Positions 8,981 to 29,621 are shown, numbered from the stretch's first letter. The stretch: 32,000 bases of DNA from Trichlorobacter lovleyi SZ (GCF_000020385.1 NC_010814.1:1830001-1862000), one strand, 5' to 3'. Translations and numbers: made by a program. Notes: generated by a model from the letters alone, not told the origin.

Positions 8981-10240
8981 TCAGGAGTTGCGGCGTTGCC
9001 CTTGAACAATACTGTTCCGCCAGTTGAAGGCGTCCAGTTGGGCAGCCAGCAGTTGGTCAAGGCTGATGGACAAGGCATCAAGCAGCTTCTGTACGACAAC
9101 AAAGTCTGCTTTTTCCAACCGCTCCGCCAATAACAACAACATACCGAGTTGCCCATCACGACGCAGCAGGGCATCAGCCATATCTTCGGACAGATTCAGG
9201 CTTTCAACTACATGTTCCATCGGGGTTTCGTAGAGGGCATCCAACAATGACAGGATACCGGTCAAAAAGGCGGTTTCCACAAGGTCGCTGGTACGGCTCT
9301 GACCGGTACGCTGCATCATCAGCAGTTCCATCAAGCGTCCCCGTACGGCAGCCATTTCAAGCAGCGGCGAGTTCAGACCCCGTTCATCCTTGCCGGCAAA
9401 CAGGGCCAGTTGTACCCAGCGCCGCAGATGGTTTATCCCCAGAATCATGATGGCATGACGGATATTCTTGATCTTCTCCCGCAGGCCGATCATGACCGAG
9501 TTAACCAGCTTCAGCAGGTTAAAGGTCAGGCTGGGGTTCTCCCGGAAGGTTTCTTCCACCTCATCAATATCCCAGTTCTCATTTAACTGTTGCAGCAGCT
9601 TCATCATGGCAATCCCGGAGGGATCAATCCGCTTCTGGCCTATAATGACCGGCCGTTCAAAAAAATAGCCCTGGAACAGTTCAAAACCGTACTCCAGGCA
9701 TTGCTCAAATACCTCGACGGTCTCAACCCGTTCTGCCAGCAGTTGAACCGGGTACTTTCGCAGGTTTGCCGCTATGCCGGACAGCTCAGCCGGGTCGGTG
9801 GCCATGATGTCCACCTTGACAATATCCACCATTTTGTAAAAGGCGGAGTGTTCCGGCGCATAGATATGGTCATCCAGGGCAATTTTAAAGCCCATTGACT
9901 TCAACTCACTGCAGCGCAGGCGAACGTTATCGTCAAGTTCGATGGTTTCCAGGATCTCCAGTACCGATTGTTGAATCGGCAACAGCTCCAGCATTTCCGA
10001 ATGCAGCACCCCGGCGGTGATATTCAGGAAGCCGAATTTGTCGCCCAGCACATCCTGGAGACCGAAATCCGACAATGCACTGGATATGACCGAAGCCGAT
10101 GCCTGGGCCTGGCTCTCAAACTGGGCAGTCGTGTGGTGACTGGCCGCCCTGAAGAGCAGTTCATAGCCGAAGATCTCCTGCTTGCGGTTCAGGATCGGCT
10201 GGCGGCCAATAAAAAATTTGAGGTCAGGTTCAATTGCCAT
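8981..10240 (-). CDS. EAL domain - HDOD domain protein (YuxH/COG3434-type c-di-GMP phosphodiesterase or receptor)
   Basis: FIGRQPILNRKQEIFGYELLFR (ELL variant of EAL), FLNI, LEILET, IALDDH, VKVD, LLAERVE and FQGYFF follow the EAL catalytic-residue order. The C-terminal half (LLKLVNSV..., ILGINHLRRWV) matches HDOD. Confidence 0.85.
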   Translation of the reverse strand: MAIEPDLKFFIGRQPILNRKQEIFGYELLFRAASHHTTAQFESQAQASASVISSALSDFGLQDVLGDKFGFLNITAGVLHSEMLELLPIQQSVLEILETIELDDNVRLRCSELKSMGFKIALDDHIYAPEHSAFYKMVDIVKVDIMATDPAELSGIAANLRKYPVQLLAERVETVEVFEQCLEYGFELFQGYFFERPVIIGQKRIDPSGIAMMKLLQQLNENWDIDEVEETFRENPSLTFNLLKLVNSVMIGLREKIKNIRHAIMILGINHLRRWVQLALFAGKDERGLNSPLLEMAAVRGRLMELLMMQRTGQSRTSDLVETAFLTGILSLLDALYETPMEHVVESLNLSEDMADALLRRDGQLGMLLLLAERLEKADFVVVQKLLDALSISLDQLLAAQLDAFNWRNSIVQGQRRNS

Positions 10241-10264
10241 AGCCTGGTACCATGCACCGTGCCG

Positions 10265-11329
10265 TTAAAGACACAATTTCAGGGTCTCTGCCGCTATCCG
10301 GTCCAGCGGCATGATCTTGTCAACACCACCCAGCTTGATCGCTTCATTCGGCATGCCGAATACCACGCAGCTGGCCTCATCCTGGGCAATGGTCCGTGCC
10401 CCGGCATCGTGCAGCTCCTTCATGCCGTGGGCCCCATCGTCACCCATCCCGGTCATGATCACACCAACCGCATTCTTGCCGGCATAGCGTGCTGCCGATC
10501 GAAACAGCACATCCACCGAGGGGCGGTGACGGGAAACCAGCGGTCCTTCTTTGACTTCAACGTAGTAGCGAGCCCCACTGCGTTTCAGCAGGGTGTGCCT
10601 GTTGCCCGGTGCAATCAGGACATGGCCCCGCACCACTGAGTCGTTGTTTTCGGCCTCTTTGACGGTTACCCGGCAGATACTGTCCAACCGTTTGGCAAAG
10701 GCTGCCGTAAAGTTCTCCGGCATATGCTGGACAATCACGATGCCCGGAGTGTCTTCCGGCAGCATCTGCAGGAAGGCTGAAAGCGCCTCGGTTCCGCCGG
10801 TTGATGCTCCCACCACCACTACCTTTTCGGTGGTCATTATCATGGCCTTGGTATTAGGGGCCTCCATGATGACGTCGGCGGTATATTTGGGGCTGACTTC
10901 ACGTATGGCGCGGATCGGCTTGAGTCTGGCTGCCGCCGCCGCCCTGATGCTGTCACAGATCCGGATACGGGACTCCTCGATAAACTGTTTGGTGCCCATC
11001 TTTGGTTTGGTGATGATATCCACGGCCCCGTATTCAAGTGCCTTCAAAGCGGTTTCGCTGCCGCTTTCCGCCAGACTGGAACACATTACCACCGGAATCG
11101 GGTGTTGGGACATCAGTTTCTGTAAAAAGGTGATGCCATCCATGCGGGGCATCTCCACATCAAGGGTGATCACATCAGGTACCTGTTCAGCAATCTTCTG
11201 CACCGCCACGATCGGATCCTGTGCCATGCCGATCACCTCTATCCCCGGATCGCTGGAGAGGATGTCGGACAAGGTCTGGCGAACCAGGGCAGAATCGTCA
11301 ACTATCAGGACTTTTATCTTGTTTGACAT
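10265..11329 (-). CDS. cheB: chemotaxis response regulator protein-glutamate methylesterase/glutaminase
   Basis: N-terminal REC ([13 protein letters not shown] ... [14 protein letters not shown]), linker, then methylesterase domain ([28 protein letters not shown]). Confidence 0.95.
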
Positions 11330-11333
11330 ACTT

Positions 11334-12206
11334 TTAGTCCTTGCGATACACGGTGTTGGCCACCTGGGTAAAGGGAACCTCCAAGCCGTTTAACGTCTCA
11401 GAGTGTCCGATAAACAGGTATCCGCCAGTCACCAGCTGACGATGAAACTTGTGCATCAGTTTTGCCTGTGTCTGCTTGTCAAAGTAGATTACGACATTAC
11501 GGCAGAAAATGACATCCATTCGCTCACTGATACCGAACTGATCCTCCATGAAATTAACCCGCTTGAAGCTGACGCTGCTACGTAGTTCCGGGGCAATCCT
11601 GACCAGCCCCTTGCTGCGGTCTTTGCTGCGCAGCAGGTATTTCTTCTTCATGGAGAGCGGGATGGTGTCGGTCCGATCCTCGCCGTAGACTGCAGATGAA
11701 GCCTTTTTGATGACCTGAGTACAGATGTCCGAGGCCAGGATCGAGAACTTGAAGCCGTGGTTGGCAGCAGCATAATCACTTAACACCATGGCCATGGTGT
11801 ACGGTTCTTCACCGGTCGAACAGCCTGCAGACCAGATCCTGAAAGGATTCAAGGGGCTTTCGCCGGCCCCCCTGAGCTGCCGCATGGTGGGGATCGCCTC
11901 CCGTACCAGAAAATCAAAATGCTGTGGTTCACGGAAAAAATCGGTCTTGTTGGTGGTGACCACATCAATCAGCTGGATGATCTCCTGCTCTCGTCCCGCC
12001 GGAGAAAAGATAAAATCGGAGTATTCCTGAAAGCTGTGCATTCCCAATGCCTTCAGACGTTTCTGCAGTCTGGCTTCCAGCATGGTTTTCTTGGCAGGGG
12101 GCATCTTGATCCCTACCTCATCGTAGATCAACGCACTGAACTGCTCAAACTCCTTGTTGCGCATACTGCAGAGTTGTGGTGTGGCCTGGCCGCTGTCGTG
12201 GTTCAT
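11334..12206 (-). CDS. cheR: chemotaxis protein methyltransferase, full length (N-terminal helical domain plus SAM-MTase domain)
   Basis: [70 protein letters not shown]. Start placed at ATG 12206 (MNHDSGQ) with GGGAG 9 nt upstream. This removes the 35-nt overlap with cheY implied by the ORF-track start at 12245. Confidence 0.9.
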
Positions 12207-12210
12207 CAGG

Positions 12211-12579
12211 TTACTCCCGGGACAGCAGTTTGTTGACCGTTGCAAGCAGGTCTTCCTGCTTGACCGGTTTCATCAGCCATCCGCTGGCACCTGCGACCCG
12301 TGCCTGTTCAAACAGGTGCTTCTGCGAGTCGGTACTCATCACCAGCAACGGAGTGGAGGAAAATTGTGCCAACTGCCGCACCTCACGGACAATGGCAATG
12401 CCATCCTTGCCCGGCATGTTGATATCGGTAATGATCAGGTCCGGCTCTACCTCTTTGATTCGATCAAGGGCCAGCAGCGGATCAGATACGGTTTCAACCC
12501 GATGGCCGCCATGTTGCAGGGTGAACTTTGCGCTGAGCAACTGGGGCCTTGAGTCATCTATCAGCAGGATGGTTTTCAC
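12211..12579 (-). CDS. cheY: CheY-like single-domain response regulator
   Basis: 122 aa REC: ILLIDDS, DLIITDINMPGKDG, LLVMST, GASGWLMKP. It lies between an MCP gene and cheR. Confidence 0.85.
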   Translation of the reverse strand: MKTILLIDDSRPQLLSAKFTLQHGGHRVETVSDPLLALDRIKEVEPDLIITDINMPGKDGIAIVREVRQLAQFSSTPLLVMSTDSQKHLFEQARVAGASGWLMKPVKQEDLLATVNKLLSRE

Positions 12580-12610: not shown

Positions 12611-15082
12611 TCATACCGGACGGTATGCTAAGGCCTGTTGCCGCGTGCTGTTCAGGCTGAAGAAGGCGATGGTTGTCTTGAGCTGCTCGGCCTGACCAGC
12701 CAGCTCTTCGGTGGTGGAGGCCATCTCTTCAGCTGCCGAGGCATTCTGCTGAATCACCTGATCAAGCTGCTGAATGGCACGATTGATCTGGTCGGCACCG
12801 GCATCCTGTTCTTTACTTGAGGCAGAGATCTCCTGCACCAGCTCGGCAGTACGCTGGATATCCGGCAGGATGGCGGTCAGCATCTGACCGGCAGCCTCGG
12901 CCACCTGGACGCTGCGGCCTGACAGTTCACTGATCTCACCGGCGGCAGTCTGGCTGCGCTCTGCCAGCTTGCGGACTTCAGAGGCAACCACAGCAAATCC
13001 CTTGCCGTGCTCACCGGCCCGGGCTGCCTCAATGGCGGCGTTCAGAGCCAGCAGATTGGTCTGGCGGGCGATCTCTTCAATGATGCTGATCTTGGTGGCA
13101 ATCTCCTTCATGGCGGCCACGGTTTCATTGACCGCCTTGCCGCCCTCACGGGCATCGGTGGCCGACTTGTTGGAGATCTTCTCGGTCTGCGATGCGTTGT
13201 CAGCGTTCTGTTTAATGCTGGAGGACATCTCTTCCATGCTGGAGGAGATCTCTTCGGCAGAGGCAGCCTGCTCGGTTGCACCCTGGGACAGGGACTGGGC
13301 CGTGGCAGAGAGTTGCTGCCCGCCGGTGGCAATGCCGTCAGCTGCTGCCTGTACCTCCCGCACGATCTCCTTCAGCTTCTCCACCATGTTGGCCAGTGAT
13401 TCCATCAGGTCGTCGTTTTCGCTGCGCTTCTTCAGTTCAACCATCAGATTGCCCTGGGCAACCTGCTTGGCATTGGCGGTGATACTGTTGGTTGCTTCAA
13501 TCAGGACGTTCAGGTTGTTCTTGATGTCGTTGAAATCGCCATTGTAGTTATCGGTGATGATCCTGGGCATATCACCTTTGCTGATCCGGTCGACATACTC
13601 GGCTGCCACATTCAGGGGGCCGATCACGGCATCAAGGGTTTCGTTGACTCCGGCCACAATCGCACGGAAGTCGCCCTGGTGTTTGCCGGCATCAGCGCGG
13701 GTGGACAGCTTGCCTTCAACTGCGGCCTTGACTAACAGATTGGCATCGGCCACCAGCGCGTTCACCGCGTCAATGCAGGTGTTGAGATTGTTTTTGATCT
13801 CATTGAAATCGCCCTGATAACTGGCTGTTATTTTTGGTGGGATATCTCCTTTGGAGATCCGGTTGACATAGTCTGCTGCAACCTGCAGCGGTCCGATCAC
13901 CGCATCCAGAGTCGCATTTACCCCAGCAACAATGGCATGAAAGTCGCCTTGATGTCTGGTGGCATCAGCGCGGGTGGATAGTTTGCCCTCTACAGCAGCC
14001 CTGGCAAGCATATTGGCATCTGCCACCAAATGGGTGATCGCATCGATGCAACCGTTCAGGTTGTTTTTGATGTCGTTAAAGTCACCATTATAGCTGTCTG
14101 TTATATGCGGCGGGATATCACCCTTTGAAATCCGGTCGACATACTCGGCAGCCACGTTCAACGGGCCGATCACGGCATCCAGGGTGCCGTTAACTCCGGC
14201 CACAATGGCATGGAAGTCCCCCTTATGCTTCGTGGCATCAACCCGGGTGGCCAGTTTGCCGGCAATGGCAGCTTCGGACAGCAGGTTGGCGTCGGCCACC
14301 AGCGCCTTGATTGCCGTTACCATGTTTGCCATGGAAGCGATGATGCTGCCGTCAGGTGCCTGTTGCGCATCCAGATTAACCGAGAGATCTCCCTGCGAGA
14401 TCTGATTGGCGATCTCGCTGATTCTGACCGGATCATCCCCAAGATAACGGCCAAAGAAACGGCGTAGACTGAGCGACATCAGCACGGCACAGATTACAAT
14501 CAGGATCAGGGCAGCTGCTCCCAGCTTGACGGTTAAGCCAATGAAAGGTGCAAAGAACTCGCTCTGCTTGATACCAACGTACAGCACACCAATGGTTTTT
14601 CCCGCGTTGTCCCGAATCGGTTCGTAGGCGGTGTAATAGGTGGTACCAAGAATCCTGGTTTTGCCGTGAAATGCTTTGTTCTCCTTGAAGATTGCATCAT
14701 GGGCTTTGCCCTGAAGGGTGGTGCCGATGGCCCGCTTGCCCTCTTTGGTCAGCACATTGGTAGAGATACGGGTGTCCCCCATAAAGATGGTGGCAGTACC
14801 ACCGGTCAGTTCCTTGACCTTGTCGGGGATTTCAAAATTGTTATTGATCTGATAGGACCCGGCCAGCAGTTTGTTGTCTACAACAGAAAATGTGGTCCCT
14901 TTTTGATGCAGCAGTTCCTTCAGGGTCGCCATCCGGCTTTCCTGGTTGGCAATAGCAAACTTCTCGATCTGCACAAAGACCGAGTACATGGTCAGGGTTG
15001 TCAGGGCACCGATAATGCAGATAACAACCAGATTGTTGATGATCAGAAGCCTGGTATTGGTTTTCAGTGACCGCCAGAACAT
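12611..15082 (-). CDS. methyl-accepting chemotaxis protein: TM - single-Cache-like sensor - TM - HAMP - 3 x 91-aa poly-HAMP-like modules - HAMP - MCP signalling domain (~34 heptads by my count)
   Basis: Periplasmic segment [17 protein letters not shown]...GKRAIGTTL...[23 protein letters not shown] is sCache-like. Hairpin tip [41 protein letters not shown]. Methylation-type [16 protein letters not shown] sites. The ATG at 15082 has GGAGG 4-5 nt upstream. Confidence 0.92.
12657..14310 (-). repeat. dispersed direct repeat, copy A (3' 1.65 kb of the MCP gene), collinear with 15901..17554
   Basis: Landmarks at 12657/15901, 13568/16812 and 13805/17049 all share the same offset of 3244 nt, so no indels. 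Highest similarity is in the 3' ~0.9-1.1 kb. Confidence 0.9.
13484..14302 (-). repeat. in-frame tandem repeat, 3 x 273 bp (3 x 91 aa), inside the 12611..15082 MCP gene
   Basis: Landmark (c/g)atatc(a/t)cc recurs at 13568, 13841 and 14114, an exact 273-nt period. It encodes repeated ...GKL(A/S)TR(A/V)[33 protein letters not shown](I/M)P..IT..Y.GDFN.IKNNLN..I(D/E)A... Confidence 0.9.
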
Positions 15083-15104: not shown

Positions 15105-15596
15105 TTATTCCTGTGTTCCGCTGGTCTGCAGAGCGGCCATTTCCTGTTCAGAGAAGACCCGGTCGATATCCAGAATCATCACAAAATGTTCTTCATGCTT
15201 GCCCATTCCCTTGATGAACTCGGTGTTGAGGCGGGTACCGATATGGGGAGCCGGTTCAATCTGTTCCGGCTCCATCTCAACCACCTCCTGCACTGAATCG
15301 GCCAGGGCACCCAGAATAGTGGTGTCACCGTCAAGGGTTACTTCAACCACAATGATGCAGGTATTAATAGTTTGTTCTGTCGCATCCATGCCAAACTTGA
15401 GCCGCATATCTATGACAGGCACCACACTGCCCCGCAGATTGATGACCCCCCGCATAAATTCGGGTGTCTGCGGTACTTTAGTTATACTTGTAAACTCAAG
15501 TATCTCTCGTACTTTCGATACATCAAGGGCAAAGATCTCATCGTCCAGTTTAAAGGTCAGGTATTGGACAGTTTCTGTTATAGTTGAAACGGACAT
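15105..15596 (-). CDS. cheW: chemotaxis coupling protein CheW
   Basis: [23 protein letters not shown]...[32 protein letters not shown] is the CheW fold signature. Start at ATG 15596 with GGAGGA 4 nt upstream. The 26 extra residues in the ORF track are read-through of an intergenic palindrome. Confidence 0.92.
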
Positions 15597-15608
15597 AAAA
15601 TCCTCCTG

Positions 15609-15712
15609 AAGTGTGACGTTAGAAGAGTGAGGAGTGAAGTTAGAAGAGTGAAAAGGTTTTCTTTCACCCTTCACCCTTCACCCTTCTAACTTCACACTTC
15701 TAACTACACTCT
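15609..15712 (-). repeat. intercistronic imperfect palindrome (REP-like) between the MCP stop and the cheW RBS
   Basis: Core stem GTGAAGTTAGAAGAGTGAA (15634-15652) pairs with TTCACCCTTCTAACTTCAC (15678-15696) at 18/19 positions. The right arm carries 3 tandem CCCTTCA heptamers (15667-15687). Outer TTAGAAG/CTTCTAA and AGTGT/ACACT pairings extend it. It shares the GAAGGGTGAAG/CTTCACCCTTC motif with 21716..21776. Confidence 0.7.
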
Positions 15713-15719
15713 TGCCTTT

Positions 15720-21699: not shown

Positions 21700-21715
21700 A
21701 AAACCTCCGGGTTAA

Positions 21716-21776
21716 GGAAGAAGGGTGAAGTGTGAAAGGGGGGTGTTTCACCCTTCACTCTTCTCACTTCACTCTT
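21716..21776 (-). repeat. intercistronic imperfect palindrome (REP-like) between the cheY stop and the cheA RBS
   Basis: GAAGGGTGAAGTGTGAAA (21720-21737) pairs with TTTCACCCTTCACTCTTC (21746-21763) at 16/18 positions with an 8-nt G-rich loop. Same GGGTGAAG/CTTCACCC vocabulary as 15609..15712. Confidence 0.7.
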
Positions 21777-21780
21777 GATT

Positions 21781-22147: not shown

Positions 22148-22504
22148 TCAGTTTATTCCTCCACACCAGATACAGGGTAGGTCTGCGTTGTGTTTGCAGG
22201 TGGATTGGCGTTGCAGCCCAACACATTCAATAGTTTTTTTTACATCAGGGGAGATACAACCTGAAAAGTTAAAGCGTTTCTGAACACGTAGAGCGGTGCG
22301 ACAGGCTGAACAGATCAGCTGCATACCAGCAAGGTCAATTTCTTCGATGCCGGAAACATCAAGCAGGATATTGGTTGATGGTATCTCTTCAAGAAGCAGA
22401 CCGTGTAATTCTGCAGCGGTGTCAATGGCCAGCCTGCCTGCCACACTGATTTTCAGTGCGCTGCCGTCGCTACTGGTACTATGGGTAAGGGTCAGATCAG
22501 ACAT
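22148..22504 (-). CDS. STAS domain protein (SpoIIAA-like fold) with a Cys-rich C-terminal half
   Basis: LKISVAGRLAIDTAAELHGLLLE...NILLDVSGIEEIDLAGMQLI follows the STAS beta-alpha pattern. There are 7 Cys between residues 65 and 114. The ATG at 22504 has GGAGA upstream. The stop is 1 nt from the cheY ATG. Confidence 0.7.
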   Translation of the reverse strand: MSDLTLTHSTSSDGSALKISVAGRLAIDTAAELHGLLLEEIPSTNILLDVSGIEEIDLAGMQLICSACRTALRVQKRFNFSGCISPDVKKTIECVGLQRQSTCKHNADLPCIWCGGIN

Positions 22505-22519: not shown

Positions 22520-24313
22520 TTAAAATAAATCAACATTATCACCAAACTCGGAATCACTGCCGGTACTGTCCTGCTGCTTCTGCAGTGAGAGTTGGACGCC
22601 ATGCCGCGCTGCCATCATTTCATGGATCATCCGTTCGCTTTCCATGGTGTAGCGCTGCTCCATGTGACGCAGGTTGTCTCGAAACTCATTTGAGGCCGGT
22701 ACCAGTGTCCGGGCCTCGGTATAAATCTGTTCAAGGGACTGTACTGCCTGTTCGGTCTGTTGCAGGATCTCTTCATGCACATGAATACTGGATGTGGTCA
22801 GATTAATTTCGTCTGAAAGTGACTCTGCCGTAATTGCCAGTGTTGAAAGCTGTTGCAGCAGGGAACGGTTAATGGCAGACAGGGATGAAATAATCTGCCG
22901 GGCCTCCTGCTCCATCTCGCTTACCTGGTTCGAACTGTCACCGGCCTCCAGAAAATTCAGATCCGTCATGCTGGCGGTGATACCGTTAATCGCTTGCAGT
23001 GTGCTTGAGACCGCCTCAGTCTGGACAACAGCCTCCAAAGAAAGTCGCTTGATCGCTTCAGCCAGTACCCCCAGAGCAGCCCCCTGAGGTCCGGTGTGGG
23101 CTGCCTTGATCTGGGCGTTCAAGGCGATCAGGTCGATCTCGGAACCAACCGCTTCGATATCACTGACAAATCCGCCTATCTCTGCCATGGTACCGGTTAC
23201 CTTCTGCATGGCAGTTGCAAGTTCATGGTCTGCCTTTTCACAGTTTTGCAGAATCAGGGTGACTTGATGCATCTCCTTTTCCATGGTTTCCAGGAGGGAA
23301 GTCTCGGCAGAACCCGAATTGCCCATCAGCGTCTGTTGTAATTCCAGGCTGATCTGGGTCTGTTTTGATCCAATATCCCGCAGGCTATCCAGAATGGTGT
23401 TTGTGGCCTTGCTCAGCTGGTCTGCGGCATGCCTGGTCTGTGCGGTTTGCAGTTCACAGATATCGCCGATTTCCGCAACCACGGCCGGACAGGTGTTGTC
23501 GTTGGGAGTTGCGTGACTGCAGGTATGTTGCATTAGTTTCTCAAGCGCCTCAATCACATGCTCGATCTGCTGCCGGGTGATGTCATGAAACTGCATGGAT
23601 GCCACCACCGCACCGATATCAGAAGCGATCTGTTCTGATATCAGGGCAACCTGATTGCCGGTGGCAGAGCAGGTGGTGTTCAAGCCAGACAGGGTCTCAA
23701 GGTTGTTGCCGACAGCGGTCAGGATCTTGTGAGCATCGGTGTACTGGTGTTCTTCTGTGGTGCGTACCATCTGCAGGTTGTTGCTGATCAACTGCGCCAG
23801 GGCCTGACGCTGGACCATGATGCCGGCAGATTTCTCACTGACGGTCTGGGAGAGCTTTTCAACATCCATGGCCAGGGTGGTAAAACCGGCTCCCAGTTCT
23901 CCCAGTCTGGCAGATTCAATCTTGGTGGAGATGGAGAGCATCCGCAGGGCCTTGTCCATCTTCTGAAACCCTTCCAGGGGTTGTATGACCTTGTCAAGCT
24001 GGACCATGATCTGTTCCAGGGTGCTGCAACTCTGGGTGCCCTGCCTGTTGACCCGCTCCAGATAGTCATTCATGTCACTGAACAGATGACGAAGCCGTTC
24101 TGTCAGCTGGCTGCTTTCAGAGCCGGCAACCAGTTCCACCAGCTCGCTGGAAACGGACGATATTTTTGAGGAGCGGATGGCGAAATCCTGCAGTTTTCCG
24201 CCCAACTCCAGAAACTGATCTTCTGTGCTGCCAGCCAGTCGTTGCAGAATCTGTATGGTAGGAGTCAGATTACTGCTCCATTGTACGACCTGATTGCAGA
24301 GATGCGGAGGCAT
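22520..24313 (-). CDS. soluble (TM-less) MCP-like protein with two signalling-hairpin-tip segments
   Basis: No hydrophobic TM segment. aa 123-155 LRMLSISTKIESARLGELGAGFTTLAMDVEKLS and aa 393-425 IDLIALNAQIKAAHTGPQGAALGVLAEAIKRLS each align to the canonical tip [33 protein letters not shown] at about 13-14 of 33 identities by eye. The rest is heptad-like and helical. Confidence 0.75.
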   Translation of the reverse strand: MPPHLCNQVVQWSSNLTPTIQILQRLAGSTEDQFLELGGKLQDFAIRSSKISSVSSELVELVAGSESSQLTERLRHLFSDMNDYLERVNRQGTQSCSTLEQIMVQLDKVIQPLEGFQKMDKALRMLSISTKIESARLGELGAGFTTLAMDVEKLSQTVSEKSAGIMVQRQALAQLISNNLQMVRTTEEHQYTDAHKILTAVGNNLETLSGLNTTCSATGNQVALISEQIASDIGAVVASMQFHDITRQQIEHVIEALEKLMQHTCSHATPNDNTCPAVVAEIGDICELQTAQTRHAADQLSKATNTILDSLRDIGSKQTQISLELQQTLMGNSGSAETSLLETMEKEMHQVTLILQNCEKADHELATAMQKVTGTMAEIGGFVSDIEAVGSEIDLIALNAQIKAAHTGPQGAALGVLAEAIKRLSLEAVVQTEAVSSTLQAINGITASMTDLNFLEAGDSSNQVSEMEQEARQIISSLSAINRSLLQQLSTLAITAESLSDEINLTTSSIHVHEEILQQTEQAVQSLEQIYTEARTLVPASNEFRDNLRHMEQRYTMESERMIHEMMAARHGVQLSLQKQQDSTGSDSEFGDNVDLF

Positions 24314-24341: not shown

Positions 24342-24740
24342 CTACTGAATCAGTCCCAGGGCGCGGAGTTCCCTGACCAGTTTCTGTTTGCTGATCGGCT
24401 TGACCAGATAGGCGGTGGCGCCATCCTGATAAAATGAGTCAAAGACCGTCTTGGGGTCATCAAGTGCCGTGGTCATAACCACCTTGACCTCCAGATTGGG
24501 CGGCACTTCAAGCTCTTTTTCGAGCTTCCGCACCAGGCGTAACGCCTCCCGGCCATCCATCTTGGGCATCATGATGTCCATGCAGATCAGGTCATAGGGG
24601 GTCTTGGCATCATGGGCCATCTTGAAGGCGGTTACCGCTTCTTCACCATCAACGGCAATCTCGCAGTCAAAGTAAGCCCCCAACAGTTCCCTGAGAATCC
24701 GGCGGGAGATGAAGTCATCTTCAACAATCAGACATTTCAC
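24342..24740 (-). CDS. single-domain response regulator (CheY-like)
   Basis: 132 aa REC: CLIVEDDFISRR, DLICMDIMMPKMDG, VVMTTAL, YLVKP. GTG start with GGAG 7 nt upstream. Confidence 0.85.
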   Translation of the reverse strand: MKCLIVEDDFISRRILRELLGAYFDCEIAVDGEEAVTAFKMAHDAKTPYDLICMDIMMPKMDGREALRLVRKLEKELEVPPNLEVKVVMTTALDDPKTVFDSFYQDGATAYLVKPISKQKLVRELRALGLIQ

Positions 24741-24752
24741 GGTGGGACTCCT

Positions 24753-25223
24753 TTACTTGAAGTCTGCAATGCCGGAAAAGATGTAGTCACGTCCGGCAAC
24801 TTCCTTCTGGTGGCATTCAAAACAGTTTTTAACCGGATCAAGGCGACTGGGTTTCCCCTCTGCCGTATAACCGGCATACAGCCAGCCCCCCGTGGCTTTC
24901 CTGGTTTTGTCCTTTTTCATCAGCACCACCATGTTTTTCGGGCCGTCAATGCTGCTGTTGTCCCCTTTGATGTTGAAGTGCTCAACCACAATCCGGCTGC
25001 CTTCGGGGAATTTGTTGCCGGCCTGGTAGCCCTTGATCGCCTTGGGGTCGGCATAGATATAGTGGATACCGTAGAAAAGTGATTTCTTGTCCGTCACCAC
25101 CTTGCGGACACTCTTTGTCCAACCCTGATATTTGGGTAATGGCGGCGTACTGGTTGCTGCAGCAGCGCAGCCGATACAAACCAGCACAAACAGCAGGGTG
25201 TTGAGCAGTGTAAGGCGTTTCAT
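24753..25223 (-). CDS. secreted cytochrome P460 / cytochrome c'-beta family haem protein
   Basis: N-terminal signal peptide MKRLTLLNTLLFVLVCIGCAAAA (possibly a lipoprotein). Family pattern Y..W, G.HYIY, KFPEGSRIVVE, VLMKK, TGGW.Y. Single C-terminal haem motif C134-F-E-C-H138. Confidence 0.7.
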   Translation of the reverse strand: MKRLTLLNTLLFVLVCIGCAAAATSTPPLPKYQGWTKSVRKVVTDKKSLFYGIHYIYADPKAIKGYQAGNKFPEGSRIVVEHFNIKGDNSSIDGPKNMVVLMKKDKTRKATGGWLYAGYTAEGKPSRLDPVKNCFECHQKEVAGRDYIFSGIADFK

Positions 25224-25278: not shown

Positions 25279-25306
25279 AGTATAGCACCGCTTGGTTGAT
25301 TGTCAC
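25279..25306 (-). promoter_or_regulatory. candidate internal sigma70-type promoter upstream of the P460 gene
   Basis: The minus strand reads GTGACA-N16-TATACT with TG one nt upstream of the -10 (extended -10). It lies in the only sizeable gap (124 nt) at the 5' end of the operon. Sequence match only. Confidence 0.35.
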
Positions 25307-25347: not shown

Positions 25348-26478
25348 TTACTGGCTTTCCTGCACGGTTTCAGATGTTTCATTGGCTGGCAGGTAGATGG
25401 AAAACGTGGTTCCGCTGCCAGGTGCACTTTCAACACTGATGGTGCCACAGTGCTGTTTGACAATGCCATATACCATGGATAGTCCCAGTCCACTCCCCTT
25501 GCCGACCTCTTTGGTGGTGAAAAACGGATCAAATATCTTTGGAAGCAGTTCTCTGGGGATACCACACCCGGTGTCTGAGACGGTCAGATGGATGTAGGTG
25601 CCTGGTGAGAGTTCAAGCGCTGACGCTGATTTGCTGTCAAGCAGGATATGGGCTGTGGCAATGGTCAGCTGGCCGCCATCGGGCATGGCATCACGGGCAT
25701 TAATGGCCAGATTCATCAACATCTGTTCAATCATGCTGCGGTCTACGCTGGCATGGCTGGTGTTCTGGTCGCAGACAAAATTGAGGGTAATGTTGTCTCC
25801 GATGATCCTTCTCAGAAACTTCTCAAAGCTGGAAACCAGGGTACAGAGCTCCGCCTTTGACGGGGTTGCTTCCTGTTTGCGGCTGAAGGTCAGCAGGCTC
25901 TGGGTCAGGCTGGTGGCCCGTTTTGCCGCATCCACAATCATCTGCAGACTTTCATGGTTGGGATCTTCCGGTGGAGTCTGCATCAGCAACATGGTGCTGT
26001 AGCCCCTGATGACGGTCAGGATGTTGTTGAAATCATGGGCCACCCCGCCGGCCAGTATGCCGATCGCTTCCAGTTTCTGCGAGTGGCGCAGCCGTTCTTC
26101 GGCCTTTTTGATCCGCAGCATGACCTTGATATGGGCCACCAGTTCATGGCTTGAGATCGGCTTTTGCAGAAAGGCATCTGCTCCCAGGTCAAGGGCTCTG
26201 ACCCGGTCTTTTGAATCAACATCAGCAGCGGTGATGACAATAACCGGGATATAGGCAGTTGCCGGATTTTGCTTGAGACACCGGATGGTTTCATAACCAT
26301 CCATGTCAGGCATCTGCAGATCAAGCAGGATGGTGTCCGGGTGCCAGCTGCGCGCCAGGTCTAGCCCCTCCTTGCCTGAACAGGCGGTTTTCAGTTGGGC
26401 ATCGCTCAGGTGCTTTTCCAGGGTGCCTTTCATGACCAGCAGGTTGACGTTTGAATCATCAATGGCGAGAATTTTCAT
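25348..26478 (-). CDS. REC - HisKA-like - HATPase_c histidine kinase (receiver at the N-terminus, no TM, no sensor domain)
   Basis: REC: ILAIDDSNVNL, TILLDLQMPDMDG, VIVITA, FLQKP. H-box LAGGVAHDFNNILTVI. ATPase boxes NLAINARDAM, DTGCGI, GSGLGLSMV. Its ATG overlaps the upstream gene's stop (ATGA). Confidence 0.85.
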   Translation of the reverse strand: MKILAIDDSNVNLLVMKGTLEKHLSDAQLKTACSGKEGLDLARSWHPDTILLDLQMPDMDGYETIRCLKQNPATAYIPVIVITAADVDSKDRVRALDLGADAFLQKPISSHELVAHIKVMLRIKKAEERLRHSQKLEAIGILAGGVAHDFNNILTVIRGYSTMLLMQTPPEDPNHESLQMIVDAAKRATSLTQSLLTFSRKQEATPSKAELCTLVSSFEKFLRRIIGDNITLNFVCDQNTSHASVDRSMIEQMLMNLAINARDAMPDGGQLTIATAHILLDSKSASALELSPGTYIHLTVSDTGCGIPRELLPKIFDPFFTTKEVGKGSGLGLSMVYGIVKQHCGTISVESAPGSGTTFSIYLPANETSETVQESQ

Positions 26479-27728
26479 GGGGCAGGTACCGTTGAGTGCT
26501 TGAAGGGCAGGCAGCAGGTGAAACTGCTGCCCTGTTCCGGGCTACTTTCCAGGGTTAATCTGCCCCCCAGTTTGTCGCAGATGGAACGGACTATGGCCAG
26601 ACCAATGCCGCTGCCTTCGCTGCGGCGGGTCAGGTAGTGCTCCAGCTGGGTAAACGGCTGGAAGATAACTTCCTGACAGGCAATTGGTATCCCTTTTCCA
26701 TTGTCGCTTACCTGTACGCAGACCGAGGCTTCCTGGTGGTCAGTTGTGGCAGGTTCAGCCCAGAGATGGCAGCTGACCCTGCCGCCTCTGCCGGTGAATT
26801 TAAAGGCATTATCCAGCAGACATCCGGCAATGATATGCAGTGCATCCCACGGTCCCTGCAGGGGCAGGGAGGCCTGTTGGCCGCAACTGGTTTTAAACTG
26901 AATCCCCGTGTTGATGGCCATGGTCTGATAGCGGCTTTCAAGCGATTCCAAAGCCATGCAGGGGCTGTTAATGATATTGCCTGTTGAATGCTTTGCAGAA
27001 CGGGCCTCTGCAAGGGTCAGAAGATTGTTGACCAGCGTTGTCATGCGGTGGGCCGATGCCTTGAGCAGTGACAGGTACTCTGCCTGTGATGCTTGCACGC
27101 CCTGATCTTCCAGCAGTTGAACAGCTCCCACAATGCCATTCAGGGGGGTACGGAATTCATGGCTGATCAGACTTAAAAATTCACGTTTTAATTCGGCAAC
27201 TTCACTGGCTTTATGGTGTGCTTCCTGCAGCATTTCCAGCTGTTCGCAGAGTTGCTTGGTCTGTTTTGCCACCTGTTCTTCAAGATGAGTGCGGTATTGC
27301 TGTTCCAGACGCTGGGTCATCAGGAAGGCCAGTACCTTGGAGATGCACCAGTTGAGCTGGTCAAAATCTATCGGTTTAAAGAGCAGGTCAAAGGCGTGCT
27401 GTTTTAATCCTTCAACCACCAGATCAAAATCAGTGTAGCCGGTCATGAGTAGCGCTGGCAGTGCAGGCAGAAACTGGTGAACCGCTTCCAACAGGCGGAT
27501 ACCGTTCATGTCCGGCATACGGATATCAGTAATCAGCAGATCAATTCCAAGACCTTGCTGTTCGATGATTGCCAGGGCTTCATGGCCGCCAGGGGCGCAG
27601 ATCACCTGATACCCCTGTGCCTCCAGAAACGTTTGCAGCATCTTCAGCACCATCGGCTCATCATCAACCAGCAAAATGCTGGCTTTTATGGATGGCAGGA
27701 GGTTGTCAGGGGTTGATGATGCTTCCAT
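26475..27728 (-). CDS. REC - coiled coil - HisKA - HATPase_c histidine kinase (receiver at the N-terminus, no TM, no sensor domain)
   Basis: REC: ILLVDDEPMVLK, DLLITDIRMPDMNG, LLMTGY, LFKP. H-box LISHEFRTPLNGI. ATPase LLDNAFKFT, DNGKGI, GSGIGLAIV. Start set at ATG 27728 (MEASSTPDN) because the ORF-track start at 27785 lies inside the predicted -12 promoter element. Confidence 0.8.
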   Translation of the reverse strand: MEASSTPDNLLPSIKASILLVDDEPMVLKMLQTFLEAQGYQVICAPGGHEALAIIEQQGLGIDLLITDIRMPDMNGIRLLEAVHQFLPALPALLMTGYTDFDLVVEGLKQHAFDLLFKPIDFDQLNWCISKVLAFLMTQRLEQQYRTHLEEQVAKQTKQLCEQLEMLQEAHHKASEVAELKREFLSLISHEFRTPLNGIVGAVQLLEDQGVQASQAEYLSLLKASAHRMTTLVNNLLTLAEARSAKHSTGNIINSPCMALESLESRYQTMAINTGIQFKTSCGQQASLPLQGPWDALHIIAGCLLDNAFKFTGRGGRVSCHLWAEPATTDHQEASVCVQVSDNGKGIPIACQEVIFQPFTQLEHYLTRRSEGSGIGLAIVRSICDKLGGRLTLESSPEQGSSFTCCLPFKHSTVPAP

Positions 27729-27780
27729 GGGTAACTTTCTGGCGCAATCGGGAATGTGTCTGTTTGCTATTGTTTGTAAT

Positions 27781-27796
27781 TGCACTATATGTGCCA
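27781..27796 (-). promoter_or_regulatory. candidate sigma54 (-24/-12) promoter
   Basis: The minus strand reads TGGCAC-ATATA-GTGCA against the consensus TGGCAC-N5-TTGCW. GG and GC are at exact spacing, with one mismatch in the -12 box. It sits ~50 nt upstream of ATG 27728 and immediately downstream of a sigma54 activator gene. Confidence 0.55.
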
Positions 27797-27880
27797 GCGG
27801 AATGGTGTATTTTGCTTTGTATGTAAATTACCGTAAATATTCGGTAGTTTGTTTTTGCAAAGAGATTTTGATTTTATATA

Positions 27881-27934
27881 TGTGTCATCATAGTGTGTCA
27901 TGGCACAGTTGTGACACGTCAATAGTGTATCATG
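27881..27934. promoter_or_regulatory. candidate upstream activator sequence (EBP binding sites)
   Basis: Direct repeats TAGTGTGTCATGG (27891-27903) and TAGTGTATCATGG (27922-27934) are 31 nt apart. There is an extra TGTGTCAT at 27881. Inverted repeat GTGTCA-N11-TGACAC (27895-27917). The centre is ~110 nt upstream of the -24 box, with an AT-rich spacer (27820-27880) between. Confidence 0.4.
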
Positions 27935-29621
27935 GCTCTGTTTGTTGCTCAAGCCAACGGTAAAAAGTACGTCGACTGATGCCCAGCAGCTTTGCTGCTT
28001 CAGTACGATTACCCTGTGTGCGTCGCAACGTCTCCTGCAGATCAACCGTTGCATGGGGCTGTTGGGCATGGCTGGTTTCAGTCCGGTGGCCAATCGTGTT
28101 GAAAAATTCAGTCGGCAGGTCATCTGAGGTGATGATTGAGCTGTGGCTTAAGATGCAGGCATGTTCGATCAGATGCTCCAGCTCGCGGATGTTTCCGGGC
28201 CAGGAATGGTTGCGTAACGCAGACAACACATCTTCGGAAAGGCTGCTGAAGGTGCGGTTGAATTTGTGTGAAAATTTGTGCAGGAAATGCTCAACCAGCA
28301 GGGGGAGGTCTTCCAACCGTTCCCGCAGGGGAGGAACTTCAAGACGTACCACATTAAGACGATAGTAGAGGTCCTGGCGAAACTCACCGCGACGGACTTT
28401 TTCCGGTAGATTGCGGTGGGTGGCGGCAATCACCCGTACATCAATCTTGATCGGTGTTGTGTCACCGACCCGTTCAATCTCCCGCTCCTGCAATACCCGC
28501 AGCAGGCGGATCTGCAGGGAAGGGGAGATGTCGCCGATTTCATCCAGAAAGATGGTGCCACCATGGGCCTTTTGGAAGCGGCCCATCTTGTCTTTGATTG
28601 CGCCGGTAAAGGCACCGCGGACATGGCCGAACAGCTCGCTTTCCAGCAGTCCTTCCGGTAGTGCCGAACAGTTGAGTTTGATAAACGGCTTCTGTTTTCT
28701 TGCACCGCATTCATGGAGTGCCTGGGCCACTAATTCTTTACCGGTGCCGCTTTCTCCGCAGATCAGGACTGTGCTGGTGACATCGGCCAGGGCCTCAATC
28801 CTGGTGTAGAGCTGCTGCATGACCGGTGCATGGCCGATGATGGTGTGAAAGCGGCTGCGTTGCTGCAGCTGTCGCTCCAGATCGTCCAGCCTGGTTTCGT
28901 CACGTATGACTGCTACCGCTCCGGTACGGGCTCCGTCCTCGCTGGTGGTCGGGGTGGCGATGACACTGACAATCCTGGTACGGTTGCCGGTACCCCGGCA
29001 TTCAATCCGTTTCAGTTCGTGACGTTGTCCAGTTCGGACGGTCTCTGCCAGGGCCATGCGGCAACTGCCGAGGCAGCCGGTGCTTAGCTGATCAAGCGGT
29101 TGCCCCAGCTGAGCAGGATTGTAGCCGCATTGCAGGGCTGCATCGTTAAGGTGCTGCAACTGGAGGCGCTGATCCACCATGATGATAGCATCACTGATGC
29201 TGCGGTTGATTGCTTCCAGGTTGGCGCGAAACTGCTCCCGTTCAAGCTGCAGCCGCCGGTTTTCAATGGCATGGCGGGTGATGCTGCTGATCTGCAGGCT
29301 GTCAAACGGTTTACAGAGATAATCAAAGGCGCCGTAACGGACTGCTTCAGTTGCAGTGGCAACATCCGGGTATCCGGTCATCATGATCACACGGCTGGTG
29401 GGGGTGATCGCCGTGGCTGTCTTGAGCAGCGCCAGTCCGCCTTGGTCCCTGTCCAGCTTGATATCGATAAAAATGACATCGTAGGGATACTGCCCGATCA
29501 AGGTGAGCGCGTCATGACAGCTGTGGGCCACATCAGTCTGATGTCCGTCATTGCCAAGAACCGTGCTGATCAGGCGGGTGACCGGAATTTCATCATCTAC
29601 AATCAGTATCCTGCCCGGCAT
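27930..29621 (-). CDS. sigma54-dependent transcriptional activator (REC - PAS - AAA+ - Fis-type HTH; NtrC family)
   Basis: REC: ILIVDDEIPV, DVIFIDIKLD, IMMTGY, LCKPF. Walker A GESGTGKE. Sigma54-contact loop GAFTGA. FLDEIGD. R-finger region. C-terminal HTH AAKLLGISRRTFYRWL. Start at ATG 29621 (MPGRILIVDD). Confidence 0.9.
   Translation of the reverse strand: MPGRILIVDDEIPVTRLISTVLGNDGHQTDVAHSCHDALTLIGQYPYDVIFIDIKLDRDQGGLALLKTATAITPTSRVIMMTGYPDVATATEAVRYGAFDYLCKPFDSLQISSITRHAIENRRLQLEREQFRANLEAINRSISDAIIMVDQRLQLQHLNDAALQCGYNPAQLGQPLDQLSTGCLGSCRMALAETVRTGQRHELKRIECRGTGNRTRIVSVIATPTTSEDGARTGAVAVIRDETRLDDLERQLQQRSRFHTIIGHAPVMQQLYTRIEALADVTSTVLICGESGTGKELVAQALHECGARKQKPFIKLNCSALPEGLLESELFGHVRGAFTGAIKDKMGRFQKAHGGTIFLDEIGDISPSLQIRLLRVLQEREIERVGDTTPIKIDVRVIAATHRNLPEKVRRGEFRQDLYYRLNVVRLEVPPLRERLEDLPLLVEHFLHKFSHKFNRTFSSLSEDVLSALRNHSWPGNIRELEHLIEHACILSHSSIITSDDLPTEFFNTIGHRTETSHAQQPHATVDLQETLRRTQGNRTEAAKLLGISRRTFYRWLEQQTEP

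Follow-up and report, generated by a model that had tools for sequence, protein, structure and literature searches.

A probable expanded F8-class chemosensory system in Trichlorobacter lovleyi with a family-specific regulatory head and a c-di-GMP protein at its tail

Do the kinase, haem and c-di-GMP genes that surround a chemosensory core belong to one system with it, and what would that system control? Minus-strand genes run uninterrupted across positions 8981-29621 of the window (the whole 32,000-nt stretch analysed, from a Trichlorobacter (Geobacter) lovleyi-type genome), and their order recurs in many genomes, so that the arrangement is not due to chance. The cluster comprises 18 genes on one strand; the 20 genes counted in a preliminary description are reached only when the downstream housekeeping genes kdsB and pyrG are included. 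A Pfam search of each ORF bore out every domain call of that description. Its tally of one CheA, one CheW, three MCP-type proteins, two CheR-type enzymes, two additional kinases and seven receivers held as well, and no CheC, CheD, CheX, CheZ or flagellar gene was found within the cluster. The phospho-acceptor Asp/Thr-Ser/Lys residues are intact in all seven receivers. The ATGA (26475-26478) and TAATG (19568-19572) overlaps lie exactly as described. The genes had otherwise been described as separated by 1-40 nt or by two structured spacers; both hairpin spacers are real, but there are two further long gaps, giving four above 40 nt (201, 124, 123 and 81 nt). We consider it likely that the locus encodes an expanded F8-class chemosensory system, with a family-specific transcription and phosphorelay module at its head and a c-di-GMP protein at its tail.

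Table 1 Features of the cluster in transcription order, with positions in the window.
Feature	Position	Strand	Evidence
σ54-dependent enhancer-binding protein (EBP), REC-PAS-AAA+-HTH_8	27930..29621	-	Pfam Sigma54_activat 1.2e-71, Response_reg, PAS_9, HTH_8
Candidate activator binding sites	27880..27925	.	Palindrome with flanking half-sites, directly 3′ of EBP stop codon
σ54 promoter TGGCAC-N5-GTGCA	27782..27796	-	~54 nt upstream of HK1 ATG (27728)
REC-HisKA-HATPase kinase 1 (HK1)	26475..27728	-	Pfam; ORF reaches 27785
REC-HisKA-HATPase kinase 2 (HK2), no TM segment	25348..26478	-	Pfam; ATGA overlap with HK1
σ70-like promoter match GTGACA-16-TATACT with TG	25279..25306	-	Consensus match only; in 124-nt gap before haem protein gene
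Secreted Cytochrome_P460-family haem protein, cytochrome c′-β type	24753..25223	-	Pfam PF16694 3.3e-31
Single-domain response regulator (RR)	24342..24740	-	Pfam Response_reg 2.2e-18
DosM-like soluble receptor, two MCP signalling tips	22520..24313	-	Two MCPsignal stretches (Pfam); 597 aa
Cys-rich STAS protein, CheS position	22148..22504	-	Pfam STAS_2 3.9e-13
CheY, first copy	21781..22146	-	Pfam
Hairpin spacer cheY/cheA	21700..21780	-	-25.7 kcal/mol, z -2.6
CheA (Hpt, dimerisation, HATPase, CheW-like)	19570..21699	-	Pfam; NCBIfam CheA 5.9e-140
Predicted MshEN-type c-di-GMP-binding motif pair within CheA, residues 253-301	20797..20943	-	NCBIfam NF053729
CheR-type methyltransferase without N-terminal domain	18962..19570	-	Pfam CheR 7.6e-31, CheR_N absent
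Small MBL-fold hydrolase	18358..18954	-	Pfam Lactamase_B 1.7e-21; HxHxDH intact
Transmembrane MCP 4HB-HAMP-3xHAMP_2, class 34H, C-terminal EFEKF	15720..18323	-	Pfam; two TM segments
Hairpin spacer MCP gene/cheW	15597..15719	-	-52.7 kcal/mol, z -6.6
CheW, single domain	15105..15596	-	Pfam CheW 2.3e-38, one stretch
Transmembrane MCP sCache_3-3xHAMP_2, class 34H, without pentapeptide	12611..15082	-	Pfam
CheY, second copy	12211..12579	-	Pfam
Full-length CheR	11334..12203	-	Pfam CheR_N + CheR
CheB (REC + methylesterase)	10265..11329	-	Pfam
EAL-HDOD protein	8981..10240	-	Pfam EAL 1.4e-12, HDOD 1.3e-13

Both membrane receptors belong to class 34H, as symmetric deletions of 7 residues compared with E. 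coli Tsr show, and the 3′ end of the sCache_3 receptor gene is 93% identical to the 4HB receptor gene. EFEKF is the consensus of Geobacter 34H receptors (PMC2577667), and 34H receptors have been linked to F8 systems (PMC7184735, PMC11253619, PMC8429497). CheAs at least 44% identical to that of the window come from loci with 34H MCPs; at 39% identity or less the MCPs are 36H, apart from one Campylobacterota exception. Among the 36H loci is one of Vibrio metoecus, with a gene order like that of V. cholerae cluster III. Since both membrane receptors are 34H, one of them ends in EFEKF and CheA groups with the CheAs of 34H clusters, the Che core is, as judged from the sequence of these three, an F8-class system with 34H receptors. 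The gene order had not been recognised as a described system; the core nevertheless falls among the clusters that Tran et al. 2008 (PMC2577667) termed 'Type 2 E. coli-like' in Geobacter, where extra non-che ORFs had been noted. With these clusters, R. leguminosarum Che2 and P. syringae cluster II it has in common transmembrane receptors of class 34H, an xF/YxxF/Y-type pentapeptide tail, and a core of CheY, CheA, CheW, CheR and CheB. EFEKF on the one receptor serves as a tether for the full-length CheR, which retains equivalents of E. coli CheR R187/G194/R197.

Among 56 F8-type loci, CheW was counted in 25 of 33, CheR in 20 of 27, CheB in 19 of 25, CheY in 35 of 50, the STAS protein in 27 of 49 and the double-tip receptor in 24 of 42. 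The short CheR is present in 14 of 53 and the MBL hydrolase in 9 of 51, the latter count excluding two loci where an inserted gene placed MBL past the distance limit. The double-tip receptor, Cys-rich STAS, CheY, CheA and, less often, the short CheR and MBL make up a block that is found repeatedly in different phyla. The receptor, STAS, short CheR and MBL had been taken for non-Che modules; they are instead recurrent accessories of this CheA lineage, and the expanded F8 form is conserved in several phyla, mostly anaerobic. The cited F8 literature makes no mention of the double-tip receptor, the Cys-STAS, a CheA with MshEN motifs or the short CheR with MBL, and rhizobial and Pleomorphomonas-type F8 clusters are without these accessories and have extra CheWs instead (PMC8429497). 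The first CheY is 61-98% identical in F8-type loci. The short CheR shares 27% identity with its full-length counterpart, of which it misses the first ~85 residues, and the structures nearest to the MBL hydrolase are of the YcbL/glyoxalase II types (2XF4, 1XM8). By fold and position, a small STAS-only gene between a soluble MCP and cheY1-cheA, the STAS protein resembles CheS of S. meliloti and A. fabrum, a CheA-binding protein that directs the flow of phosphoryl groups to one or the other of two CheYs (PMC12654446). Unlike CheS, which belongs to the alphaproteobacterial main chemotaxis cluster, a system of another class, it has a conserved Cys triad with a C-terminal C(I/L)W motif (LLCSA(H/C), GC, C(I/L)W); its phospho-Ser position shows no conservation.

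No TM segment was found in the double-tip receptor. Its tips, at approximately residues 108-165 and 364-433 (phmmer), are also kept in ~600-aa orthologues across phyla, and its more than 1000 full-length homologues are annotated merely as 'MCP'. The AF2 model is all-helical (pLDDT 81), and a structure search with the protein was weak, with no match at E ≤ 1e-3. Soluble, with two signalling domains but without a sensor domain, and encoded within a che cluster, it is in architecture like V. cholerae DosM of cluster I, a hallmark of F9 systems (PMC7534058, PMC9321776). A DosM-like receptor could therefore point to a double-layer array of F9 type, wholly cytoplasmic as in cluster I. We regard this as very improbable: CheW is a single domain here and not the triple CheW of F9, two transmembrane 34H receptors are encoded alongside, and CheA is of the F7/F8 lineage, its best Vibrio match being a 36H locus with a cluster III (F7)-like order, not cluster I.

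Within CheA, the match to NF053729 scored 33 bits, just below the cutoff of 38, and the motif pair matched PilF (6F8L, 6.6e-7) and MshE (5HTL, 5e-4) in the PDB. Motif II occurs in 29 orthologues of CheA, of which 26 have motif I as well; the spacer between the motifs is 1 residue, not 5. The conserved, predicted MshEN-type c-di-GMP-binding motif pair in this CheA is a new element described here. The CheA of Aeromonas veronii (Wang et al. 2016) has the same order, Hpt-(P2)-MshEN_N-dimerisation-HATPase-CheW-like, with the insert at the same position; its motifs are about 5-10 residues apart, and the equivalent MshEN_N fragment bound c-di-GMP in vitro with a Kd of 2.6 µM (PMC5013675 and its supplement).

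To the recurrent block, Geobacteraceae add a σ54 activator, two REC-kinases, a cytochrome c′-β and an RR at the head and an EAL-HDOD protein at the tail. The activator retains GAFTGA in the translated AAA+ part. The palindrome behind its gene, TGTGTCATGGCACA on the plus strand (27894-27907) and TGTGCCATGACACA on the gene strand, is flanked by the half-sites TGTCAC/TGACACA. It matches once in the window, where 0.71 matches are expected by chance, and is not significant alone; the same palindromes occupy the same place in three other loci (L006, L009 and L022). The σ54 promoter, within the 201-nt gap between the EBP and HK1 genes, is identical in T. thiogenes (L006) and reads TGGCAC-N5-CTGCA in L009; similar -24/-12 elements lie behind the EBP gene in L011, L021, L022, L025 and L032. 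This supports the earlier proposal that a σ54 activator heads the cluster, since a matching promoter and the conserved palindrome come immediately after its gene. The HK1 start at 27728 is the one used by gene callers on public contigs, and a search of HK1 for a hydrophobic segment, and hence a TM segment, found none. Both REC-kinases have intact phospho-sites. The secreted haem protein, which has a CFECH motif and whose signal peptide spans residues 1-29, does belong to the Cytochrome_P460 family, but the description as P460 was less apt, since in the PDB it is closest to M. capsulatus cytochrome c′-β (6HIH/7ZQZ, E ~1e-18), as against ~1e-5 for true P460.

Alternatively, the run could consist of separate units packed between housekeeping genes. 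The EBP and the two REC-kinases, possibly with the haem protein and RR, would then be a σ54 two-component module with targets elsewhere, next to an ordinary F8 chemotaxis operon and an EAL-HDOD gene unrelated to either. Consistent with this, long gaps with their own promoter-like elements precede HK1 and the P460-family gene, and the head module is confined to Geobacteraceae, as is EAL-HDOD except at one locus, L075, where it adjoins a 36H (F7-type) cluster. The head module is also reshuffled in L011 and L015, and in L008, a close relative, the activator is missing together with its promoter, but the remainder is retained. Nevertheless, we hold separate units to be unlikely. In nine Geobacteraceae loci, with CheA 67-94% identical to that of the window, the REC-kinase, P460-family and RR genes are co-conserved with the Che core, contrary to the outcome that would have refuted the earlier description, and the P460-family and RR genes always stand directly before the double-tip receptor, with which the RR is co-conserved. 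Within Geobacteraceae the EBP, too, shows co-conservation with the kinases, the P460-family protein and the RR. In two distant lineages, L025 (Nitrospirae) and L032 (Syntrophorhabdus), an EBP gene and σ54 promoter lie directly before STAS/CheY/CheA. Furthermore, neither REC-kinase has its own sensor domain, so that both require an upstream kinase, the genes lie on one strand throughout with tight spacing, and no convincing terminator was found between them.

Transcription as a single operon is what we infer for the expanded F8 cluster; the 201-nt and 124-nt gaps (the latter between HK2 and the P460-family gene) contain promoter-like sites, so the cluster may also be transcribed as several units. 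The two hairpins are conserved by position. Strong hairpins of unrelated sequence occur at the cheY/cheA junction in L006, L008, L009 and L018, and hairpins or terminators at the MCP/cheW junction in L006, L022, L024, L040 and L042.

The output that we infer for the cluster bears on a proposal that it is an alternative-function pathway, acting on EAL-HDOD c-di-GMP turnover or by phosphorelay to the REC-kinases rather than on motility. EAL-HDOD closes seven Geobacteraceae clusters, and the locus has REC-kinases and an EBP. Relay to the REC-kinases is plausible by precedent: the Che cluster of R. centenum Che3 (CheA3) is joined to the receiver-kinase CheS3 (PMC3868531), and in M. xanthus Che3 (CrdS/CrdA; PMC3147164) the NtrC-type σ54 activator CrdA stands at the cluster head, both with gene regulation as output. 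Both belong to other chemosensory classes, and the present cluster differs from them in that it has two REC-kinases and its σ54 promoter is directed at its own genes. The G. sulfurreducens Esn network (EsnABCD) likewise ties a Geobacter Che-like pathway to c-di-GMP, but with 40H receptors, a β-group cluster and a diguanylate cyclase as response regulator (PMC5585712). Turnover as the output fares less well. The EAL-HDOD protein is missing from most F8-type loci. It retains the ELL, ExxE, DD, K, E and Q residues, but it has no receiver and its loop 6 is degenerate; together with the motif pair in CheA, this makes c-di-GMP at least as likely an input as an output. In addition, two ordinary CheYs are retained here, as against none in M. 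xanthus Che3, and F8 systems in the cited studies do affect swimming, with small or modulatory effects (PMC8429497, PMC11253619), which speaks against setting motility aside. A non-motility pathway is therefore possible but somewhat doubtful.

For the expanded F8 system, we propose that the activator would bind the palindrome and fire the σ54 promoter, so that the two REC-kinases are transcribed, probably reading on through the cluster, while the hairpins after cheY and the first MCP gene would raise the ratio of upstream products. The 34H receptors, CheW and CheA would form membrane arrays, which the double-tip receptor may join or bridge. The periplasmic haem protein might conceivably give an NO/CO or redox cue to a receptor periplasmic domain. 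CheA would phosphorylate CheB and both CheYs, and probably the REC-kinase receivers as well, with the STAS protein tuning CheA-CheY traffic in a CheS-like manner. From the REC-kinases the signal may pass to the regulator, the activator or both, so that a transcriptional loop is closed. c-di-GMP would bind CheA, its level being set or read by EAL-HDOD. Our data suggest that the cluster represents a known chemosensory class, yet one with an accessory set that is unusually rich and largely unstudied.

The cluster comprises 18 consecutive minus-strand genes, flanked by dCMP deaminase, nrdR and ribD on the plus strand at one side and by kdsB and pyrG on the minus strand at the other. Pfam agreed with every domain call of the preliminary description, and the two gene overlaps it reported are exact, whereas its count of 20 genes was too high. 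Most neighboring genes of the cluster lie -4 to 34 nt apart, but four gaps are longer. Two of these are the structured spacers already described, which are real, and two are long unstructured gaps that had been missed. Since an Rfam scan of the whole window matched no family, the hairpins in the structured spacers are not known RNAs. A terminator scan found no credible terminator between cluster genes; the sole intergenic minus-strand match overlaps the cheA ribosome-binding site and was discarded as not credible. Related loci also have hairpins at the cheY→cheA and first MCP→cheW junctions (L006, L008, L009, L018, L022, L024, L040 and L042 between them); their position is conserved across species and their sequence is not. 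Those of Ignavibacteria and Bacteroidota at these junctions resemble true terminators, and the two in the window are composed of GTGAAG/CTTCAC-type repeats.

Just past the stop codon of the last gene, EAL-HDOD, lies a σ70-like match that could serve kdsB-pyrG; in several Geobacteraceae this gene pair comes after the cluster, in the same orientation. A large hybrid kinase is encoded 2.6 kb past the cluster on the opposite strand, and no evidence of a link between it and the cluster was found. The identical CheA protein is present on contigs of the KB-1 dechlorinating culture (JGI 2013843002) and in several sequencing runs, and the closest other genome found was that of Trichlorobacter thiogenes, with 94% CheA identity, which marks the window as part of a Trichlorobacter (Geobacter) lovleyi-type chromosome. 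An assembly breakpoint is suggested by several public contigs with the window's CheA, which break off within or ahead of the first MCP gene. The two MCP genes are 93% identical at their 3′ ends, and each holds three tandem HAMP_2 units of 273 nt.

Coordinates of features in and around the chemosensory cluster
Feature	Position in window	Strand	Details
Chemosensory cluster	8981-29621	-	
Activator sites (candidate)	27880-27925		palindrome TGTGCCATGACACA and flanking half-sites
σ54 promoter match	27796-27782		TGGCAC-N5-GTGCA
Long gap, EBP→HK1			201 nt
Long gap, HK2→haem protein gene			124 nt
Long gap with hairpin, cheY→cheA	21700-21780		81 nt; -25.7 kcal/mol, z -2.6
Long gap with hairpin, first MCP→cheW	15597-15719		123 nt; -52.7 kcal/mol, z -6.6
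STAS gene (family with cysteine motifs)	22148-22504		
CheA motif pair	20797-20943		CheA residues 253-301
MCP 3′ ends, 93% identical	12649-12948; 15893-16192		
Tandem HAMP_2 units	13508-14353; 16752-17597		
σ70-like match	8948-8976	-	TTGACA-17-TATTTT
Hybrid kinase	3664-6390	+	dCache-HAMP-PAS-HisKA-HATPase-REC
ORF	400-1098	-	232 aa, no Pfam match
PanE-type reductase, neighbour of the 232-aa ORF	1227-2231		
O-methyltransferase, neighbour of the 232-aa ORF	2487-3551		

When aligned to E. coli Tsr, the 36H reference for heptad class, both transmembrane receptors of the cluster (4HB-MCP and sCache_3-MCP) have a single deletion of 7 residues per arm of the signalling hairpin, which makes them class 34H. 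The 4HB-MCP ends in ...DDEFEKF, with the pentapeptide EFEKF (xF/YxxF/Y type) behind a long linker. This pentapeptide is the exact consensus of Geobacter 34H receptors, found in clusters that are rich in non-che ORFs and were termed 'Type 2 E. coli-like' (Tran et al. 2008, PMC2577667). Later work places 34H receptors, as well as the pentapeptide and its matching CheR, in class F8 (PMC7184735, PMC11253619, PMC8429497), the class definitions being taken from papers later than Wuichet & Zhulin 2010. A CheA scan of 185,579 species genomes yielded 80 loci, which were annotated with the window's proteins and whose receptors were classed. Receptors are 34H in the loci whose CheA shares 44% identity or more with that of the window and 36H in those at or below 39%, with one Campylobacterota exception. 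The 36H group includes a Vibrio metoecus locus whose gene order we take to match V. cholerae cluster III, of class F7. Because its receptors are 34H, one bears EFEKF and its CheA groups with those of the 34H loci, the cluster core is, by receptor class and the CheA-identity split, an F8 system. In the β-subdomain of the full-length CheR, the part concerned with pentapeptide binding, the loop length and the equivalents of R187, G194 and R197 are kept but those of G188 and G190 are not; in the short CheR only G194 of these five is kept.

The double-tip receptor, STAS, short CheR and metallo-β-lactamase (MBL) genes had been described as non-Che modules. Among the 56 F8-type loci, counting for each gene those with enough flanking sequence, cheY stands immediately before cheA in 35 of 50, STAS is encoded nearby in 27 of 49 and a TM-less receptor of ~600 aa in 24 of 42; downstream of cheA there is a short CheR in 14 of 53 and an MBL hydrolase in 9 of 51, a count that omits two further loci in which an inserted gene moved the MBL past the distance limit. 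The corresponding figures for core genes are 25/33 for CheW, 20/27 for CheR and 19/25 for CheB. At least some of the accessories occur in Desulfuromonadales, Nitrospirota, Syntrophales and Thermodesulfobacteriota, and also in Ignavibacteria/Melioribacteraceae, Bacteroidota and one Treponema. Since they recur in several phyla, the four modules are not local additions; judged by this distribution, they are accessories of an expanded F8 form.

The double-tip receptor contains two MCPsignal stretches, without hydrophobic segment, TM or sensor domain, and its tips lie at about residues 108-165 and 364-433; orthologues likewise have two. Its AF2 model is wholly helical (pLDDT 81), and a Foldseek search with this model returned chemoreceptor cytoplasmic (MCP) domains among the top matches, none at E <=1e-3. 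More than 1000 full-length homologues are annotated only as 'methyl-accepting chemotaxis protein', and NCBIfam holds no specific family for it. The protein is DosM-type in architecture, sharing with DosM two tandem signalling domains and the absence of TM and sensor domain. DosM and a triple CheW are considered hallmarks of class F9 (PMC7534058, PMC9321776), and on the receptor's architecture the cluster could be read as an F9-type cytoplasmic array. However, the CheW here (163-189 aa) has a single CheW domain rather than the triple-domain CheW3, and CheA is not F9-like. With the CheW, CheA and receptor evidence all against it, the F9 reading was rejected in favor of F8. Geobacter is not among the DosM carriers that Mo et al. 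2022 list in their supplements, and no mention of double-tipped receptors in F8 clusters was found in the cited literature.

Directly upstream of cheY-cheA, a STAS-only protein is encoded. In S. meliloti and A. fabrum the order is soluble MCP, CheS, cheY1 and cheA, and CheS is a CheA-binding protein that apportions the phosphoryl flow to two CheYs (PMC12654446); the window's protein is likened to CheS by this shared gene position and its STAS-only make-up. Three cysteines are conserved in its family, in the motifs LLCSA(H/C), GC and C-terminal C(I/L)W, and may form a metal or redox site. An anti-sigma antagonist partner switch of the SpoIIAA/CrsA type was rejected, because the phosphorylatable Ser is not conserved (A, S, T or variable) and no PP2C phosphatase or anti-σ kinase gene lies within the cluster. 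Full-text search of P. syringae papers found no STAS protein, the matches being to the author Staskawicz. The short CheR lacks an N-terminal domain and is 27% identical to the full-length CheR. The MBL protein has an intact HxHxDH motif, and its nearest structures are of the YcbL/glyoxalase II type; for these reasons a link to the di-iron chemotaxis sensor of Treponema and Thermotoga, raised by a weak Pfam ODP match (23 bits, below cutoff), was dropped. The flavodiiron-type motif is HxExDH. NCBIfam gave only generic matches, below cutoff, for STAS, short CheR, MBL and EAL-HDOD.

Within CheA, an NCBIfam MshE-related c-di-GMP motif was matched at residues 278-304 (33 bits vs a cutoff of 38, half of the profile), and by eye two tandem 24-residue MshEN motifs, KLGDILVERGDLSPVEMQKILSMQ and RFGEILVEQGLVPVSKVQSALLEQ, were recognized with the pattern RLGxxhhxxGhhxxxxLxxxLxxQ. 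The best PDB matches of this segment are T. thermophilus PilF and V. cholerae MshE. Of the 29 CheA orthologues with motif II, 26 also have motif I, and both motifs appear better conserved than the surrounding linker. The motifs are separated by one residue, as against five in V. cholerae MshE, and the full 53-residue MshEN domain was not matched. The same architecture is listed for Aeromonas veronii CheA, a fragment of which binds c-di-GMP with a Kd of 2.6 µM (Wang et al. 2016, PMC5013675 supplement), the window differing in its spacer of 1 residue rather than 5. From these motifs, the window's CheA probably reads c-di-GMP. In EAL-HDOD, most catalytic residues of the EAL domain are present, yet its loop 6 is degenerate; the protein may therefore hydrolyse c-di-GMP or only bind it. 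In a Nitrosomonas MAG (L075), a gene for an EAL-HDOD protein of 43% identity immediately precedes cheY-cheA within a 36H (F7-type) cluster; here the protein type has joined a Che cluster independently. The preliminary description had proposed a non-motility pathway whose output could be c-di-GMP turnover, which is possible but not favored: the CheA motif pair, together with EAL-HDOD at the cluster end, suggests that c-di-GMP is at least as much an input to CheA as an output.

At the head of the cluster, the σ54 enhancer-binding activator (EBP) has REC, PAS, AAA+ with GAFTGA, and HTH_8. Candidate activator sites lie immediately after its stop codon, and a σ54 promoter match of the GG-N10-GC form is found ~100 nt past the palindrome and ~54 nt before the ATG of HK1. 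By itself the palindrome does not reach statistical significance within the window; its weight comes from its conserved position. Both elements are nearly unchanged in T. thiogenes. The palindrome is perfect in L022 and in L009, a more distantly related Geobacter MAG, which also has a TGGCAC-N5-CTGCA of its own. An EBP with a σ54 promoter behind it also stands upstream of cheA in a Nitrospirae locus (L025, directly before cheY) and in Syntrophorhabdus (L032, directly before STAS). The strict σ54 pattern gave only 4 matches over all loci, and the candidates of L011, L021 and L022 are less certain because the -12 element had to be relaxed. In a T. lovleyi MAG (L008), the activator gene, palindrome and promoter are absent (its positions 2700-3130), and HK1-HK2-P460-RR and the remaining cluster are retained. 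With its NtrC-type activator at the head, the cluster resembles M. xanthus Che3, which has CrdA (PMC3147164), but Che3-type (ACF) systems have no CheY and an NtrC-like regulator as sole output, whereas the window has two CheY genes.

HK1 and HK2, the REC-HisKA-HATPase kinases, have an N-terminal receiver. Since they have neither sensor domain nor membrane segment, their input must, from domain make-up, be phosphorylation, the same mode as in R. centenum, where CheA3 controls CheS3 by phosphorylation (PMC3868531). The following gene encodes a haem protein with a signal peptide and CXXCH. Its identity as a true cytochrome P460 was rejected, since cytochrome c′-β entries matched at ~1e-18 vs ~1e-5 for P460 entries; it is much closer to M. 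capsulatus cytochrome c′-β, and NCBIfam has no specific family for it. Cytochromes c′-β bind NO and CO. In nine Geobacteraceae loci with a CheA 67-94% identical to the window's, the P460-type and response regulator (RR) genes always precede the double-tip receptor, although the order of head genes differs in L011 and L015. Head genes thus travel with the Che core, and the prospect raised in the preliminary description, that the two are never co-conserved, does not hold. The run might instead consist of separate neighboring units, a reading favored by promoter-like elements in the long gaps and the lineage restriction of head and tail; this co-conservation, the sensorless kinases and the EBP-σ54-Che arrangements of distant lineages all argue against such a division.

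A working scheme can be built on the observed gene content, receptor class, accessory-block conservation, CheA motif pair, and activator with palindrome and σ54 promoter. The activator would fire the σ54 promoter, so that transcription covers the kinases as a minimum and probably the entire run, and the hairpins after cheY and the first MCP gene would protect or partly terminate the upstream mRNA, whereby CheY and receptor would be more abundant than CheA and CheW. Membrane arrays would be formed by the 34H receptors with CheW and CheA, and the double-tipped receptor would join or bridge them. CheA, modulated by c-di-GMP, would pass phosphoryl groups to the CheYs, CheB and the REC-kinases, and the kinases in turn to RR and/or the activator. 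STAS would behave like CheS, perhaps under redox or metal control, and a receptor may receive, at its periplasmic domain, an NO/CO or redox signal from the periplasmic haem protein. The behavioral output may be swimming, gene expression or both. In its fullest form, an F8 array would integrate three internal states with external cues: the double-tipped receptor would bridge or stack the 34H arrays, c-di-GMP would gate CheA directly via the MshEN insert at a local level set by EAL-HDOD, the metal- or redox-sensing Cys-STAS would also gate CheA, the cytochrome c′-β would be an NO/CO co-sensor for a receptor, and output would be split between CheY and a CheA→REC-kinase→σ54-activator loop re-inducing the cluster. 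That all these parts hold jointly we consider improbable.

The gene order, at first unrecognized, belongs to an already known class, Geobacter clusters of this type having been catalogued in 2008, and CheA-MshEN, DosM and CheS each have precedent elsewhere. No published description was found of CheA-MshEN, a DosM-type receptor and a CheS-like STAS combined in an expanded F8 form, along with the pairing of a short CheR with an MBL, a STAS family rich in cysteines and the σ54/REC-kinase/cytochrome c′-β head. The expanded variant is useful to specialists and testable, and brings no surprise of principle. F8 systems are widespread and poorly understood, and the recent literature cited here calls them experimentally unexplored. 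The double-tipped receptor, a CheA that is probably a reader of c-di-GMP, the conserved Cys-rich STAS partner, the short CheR with its MBL, and the σ54 activator with its candidate binding site and promoter offer handles for experiments. A richer F8 form is common to Desulfuromonadales, Nitrospirota, Ignavibacteria/Bacteroidota and others, and in it double-tipped receptors have a second home besides F9. For Geobacteraceae that respire organohalides and metals, such a system could tie gas or redox sensing, biofilm second-messenger state and behavior together.
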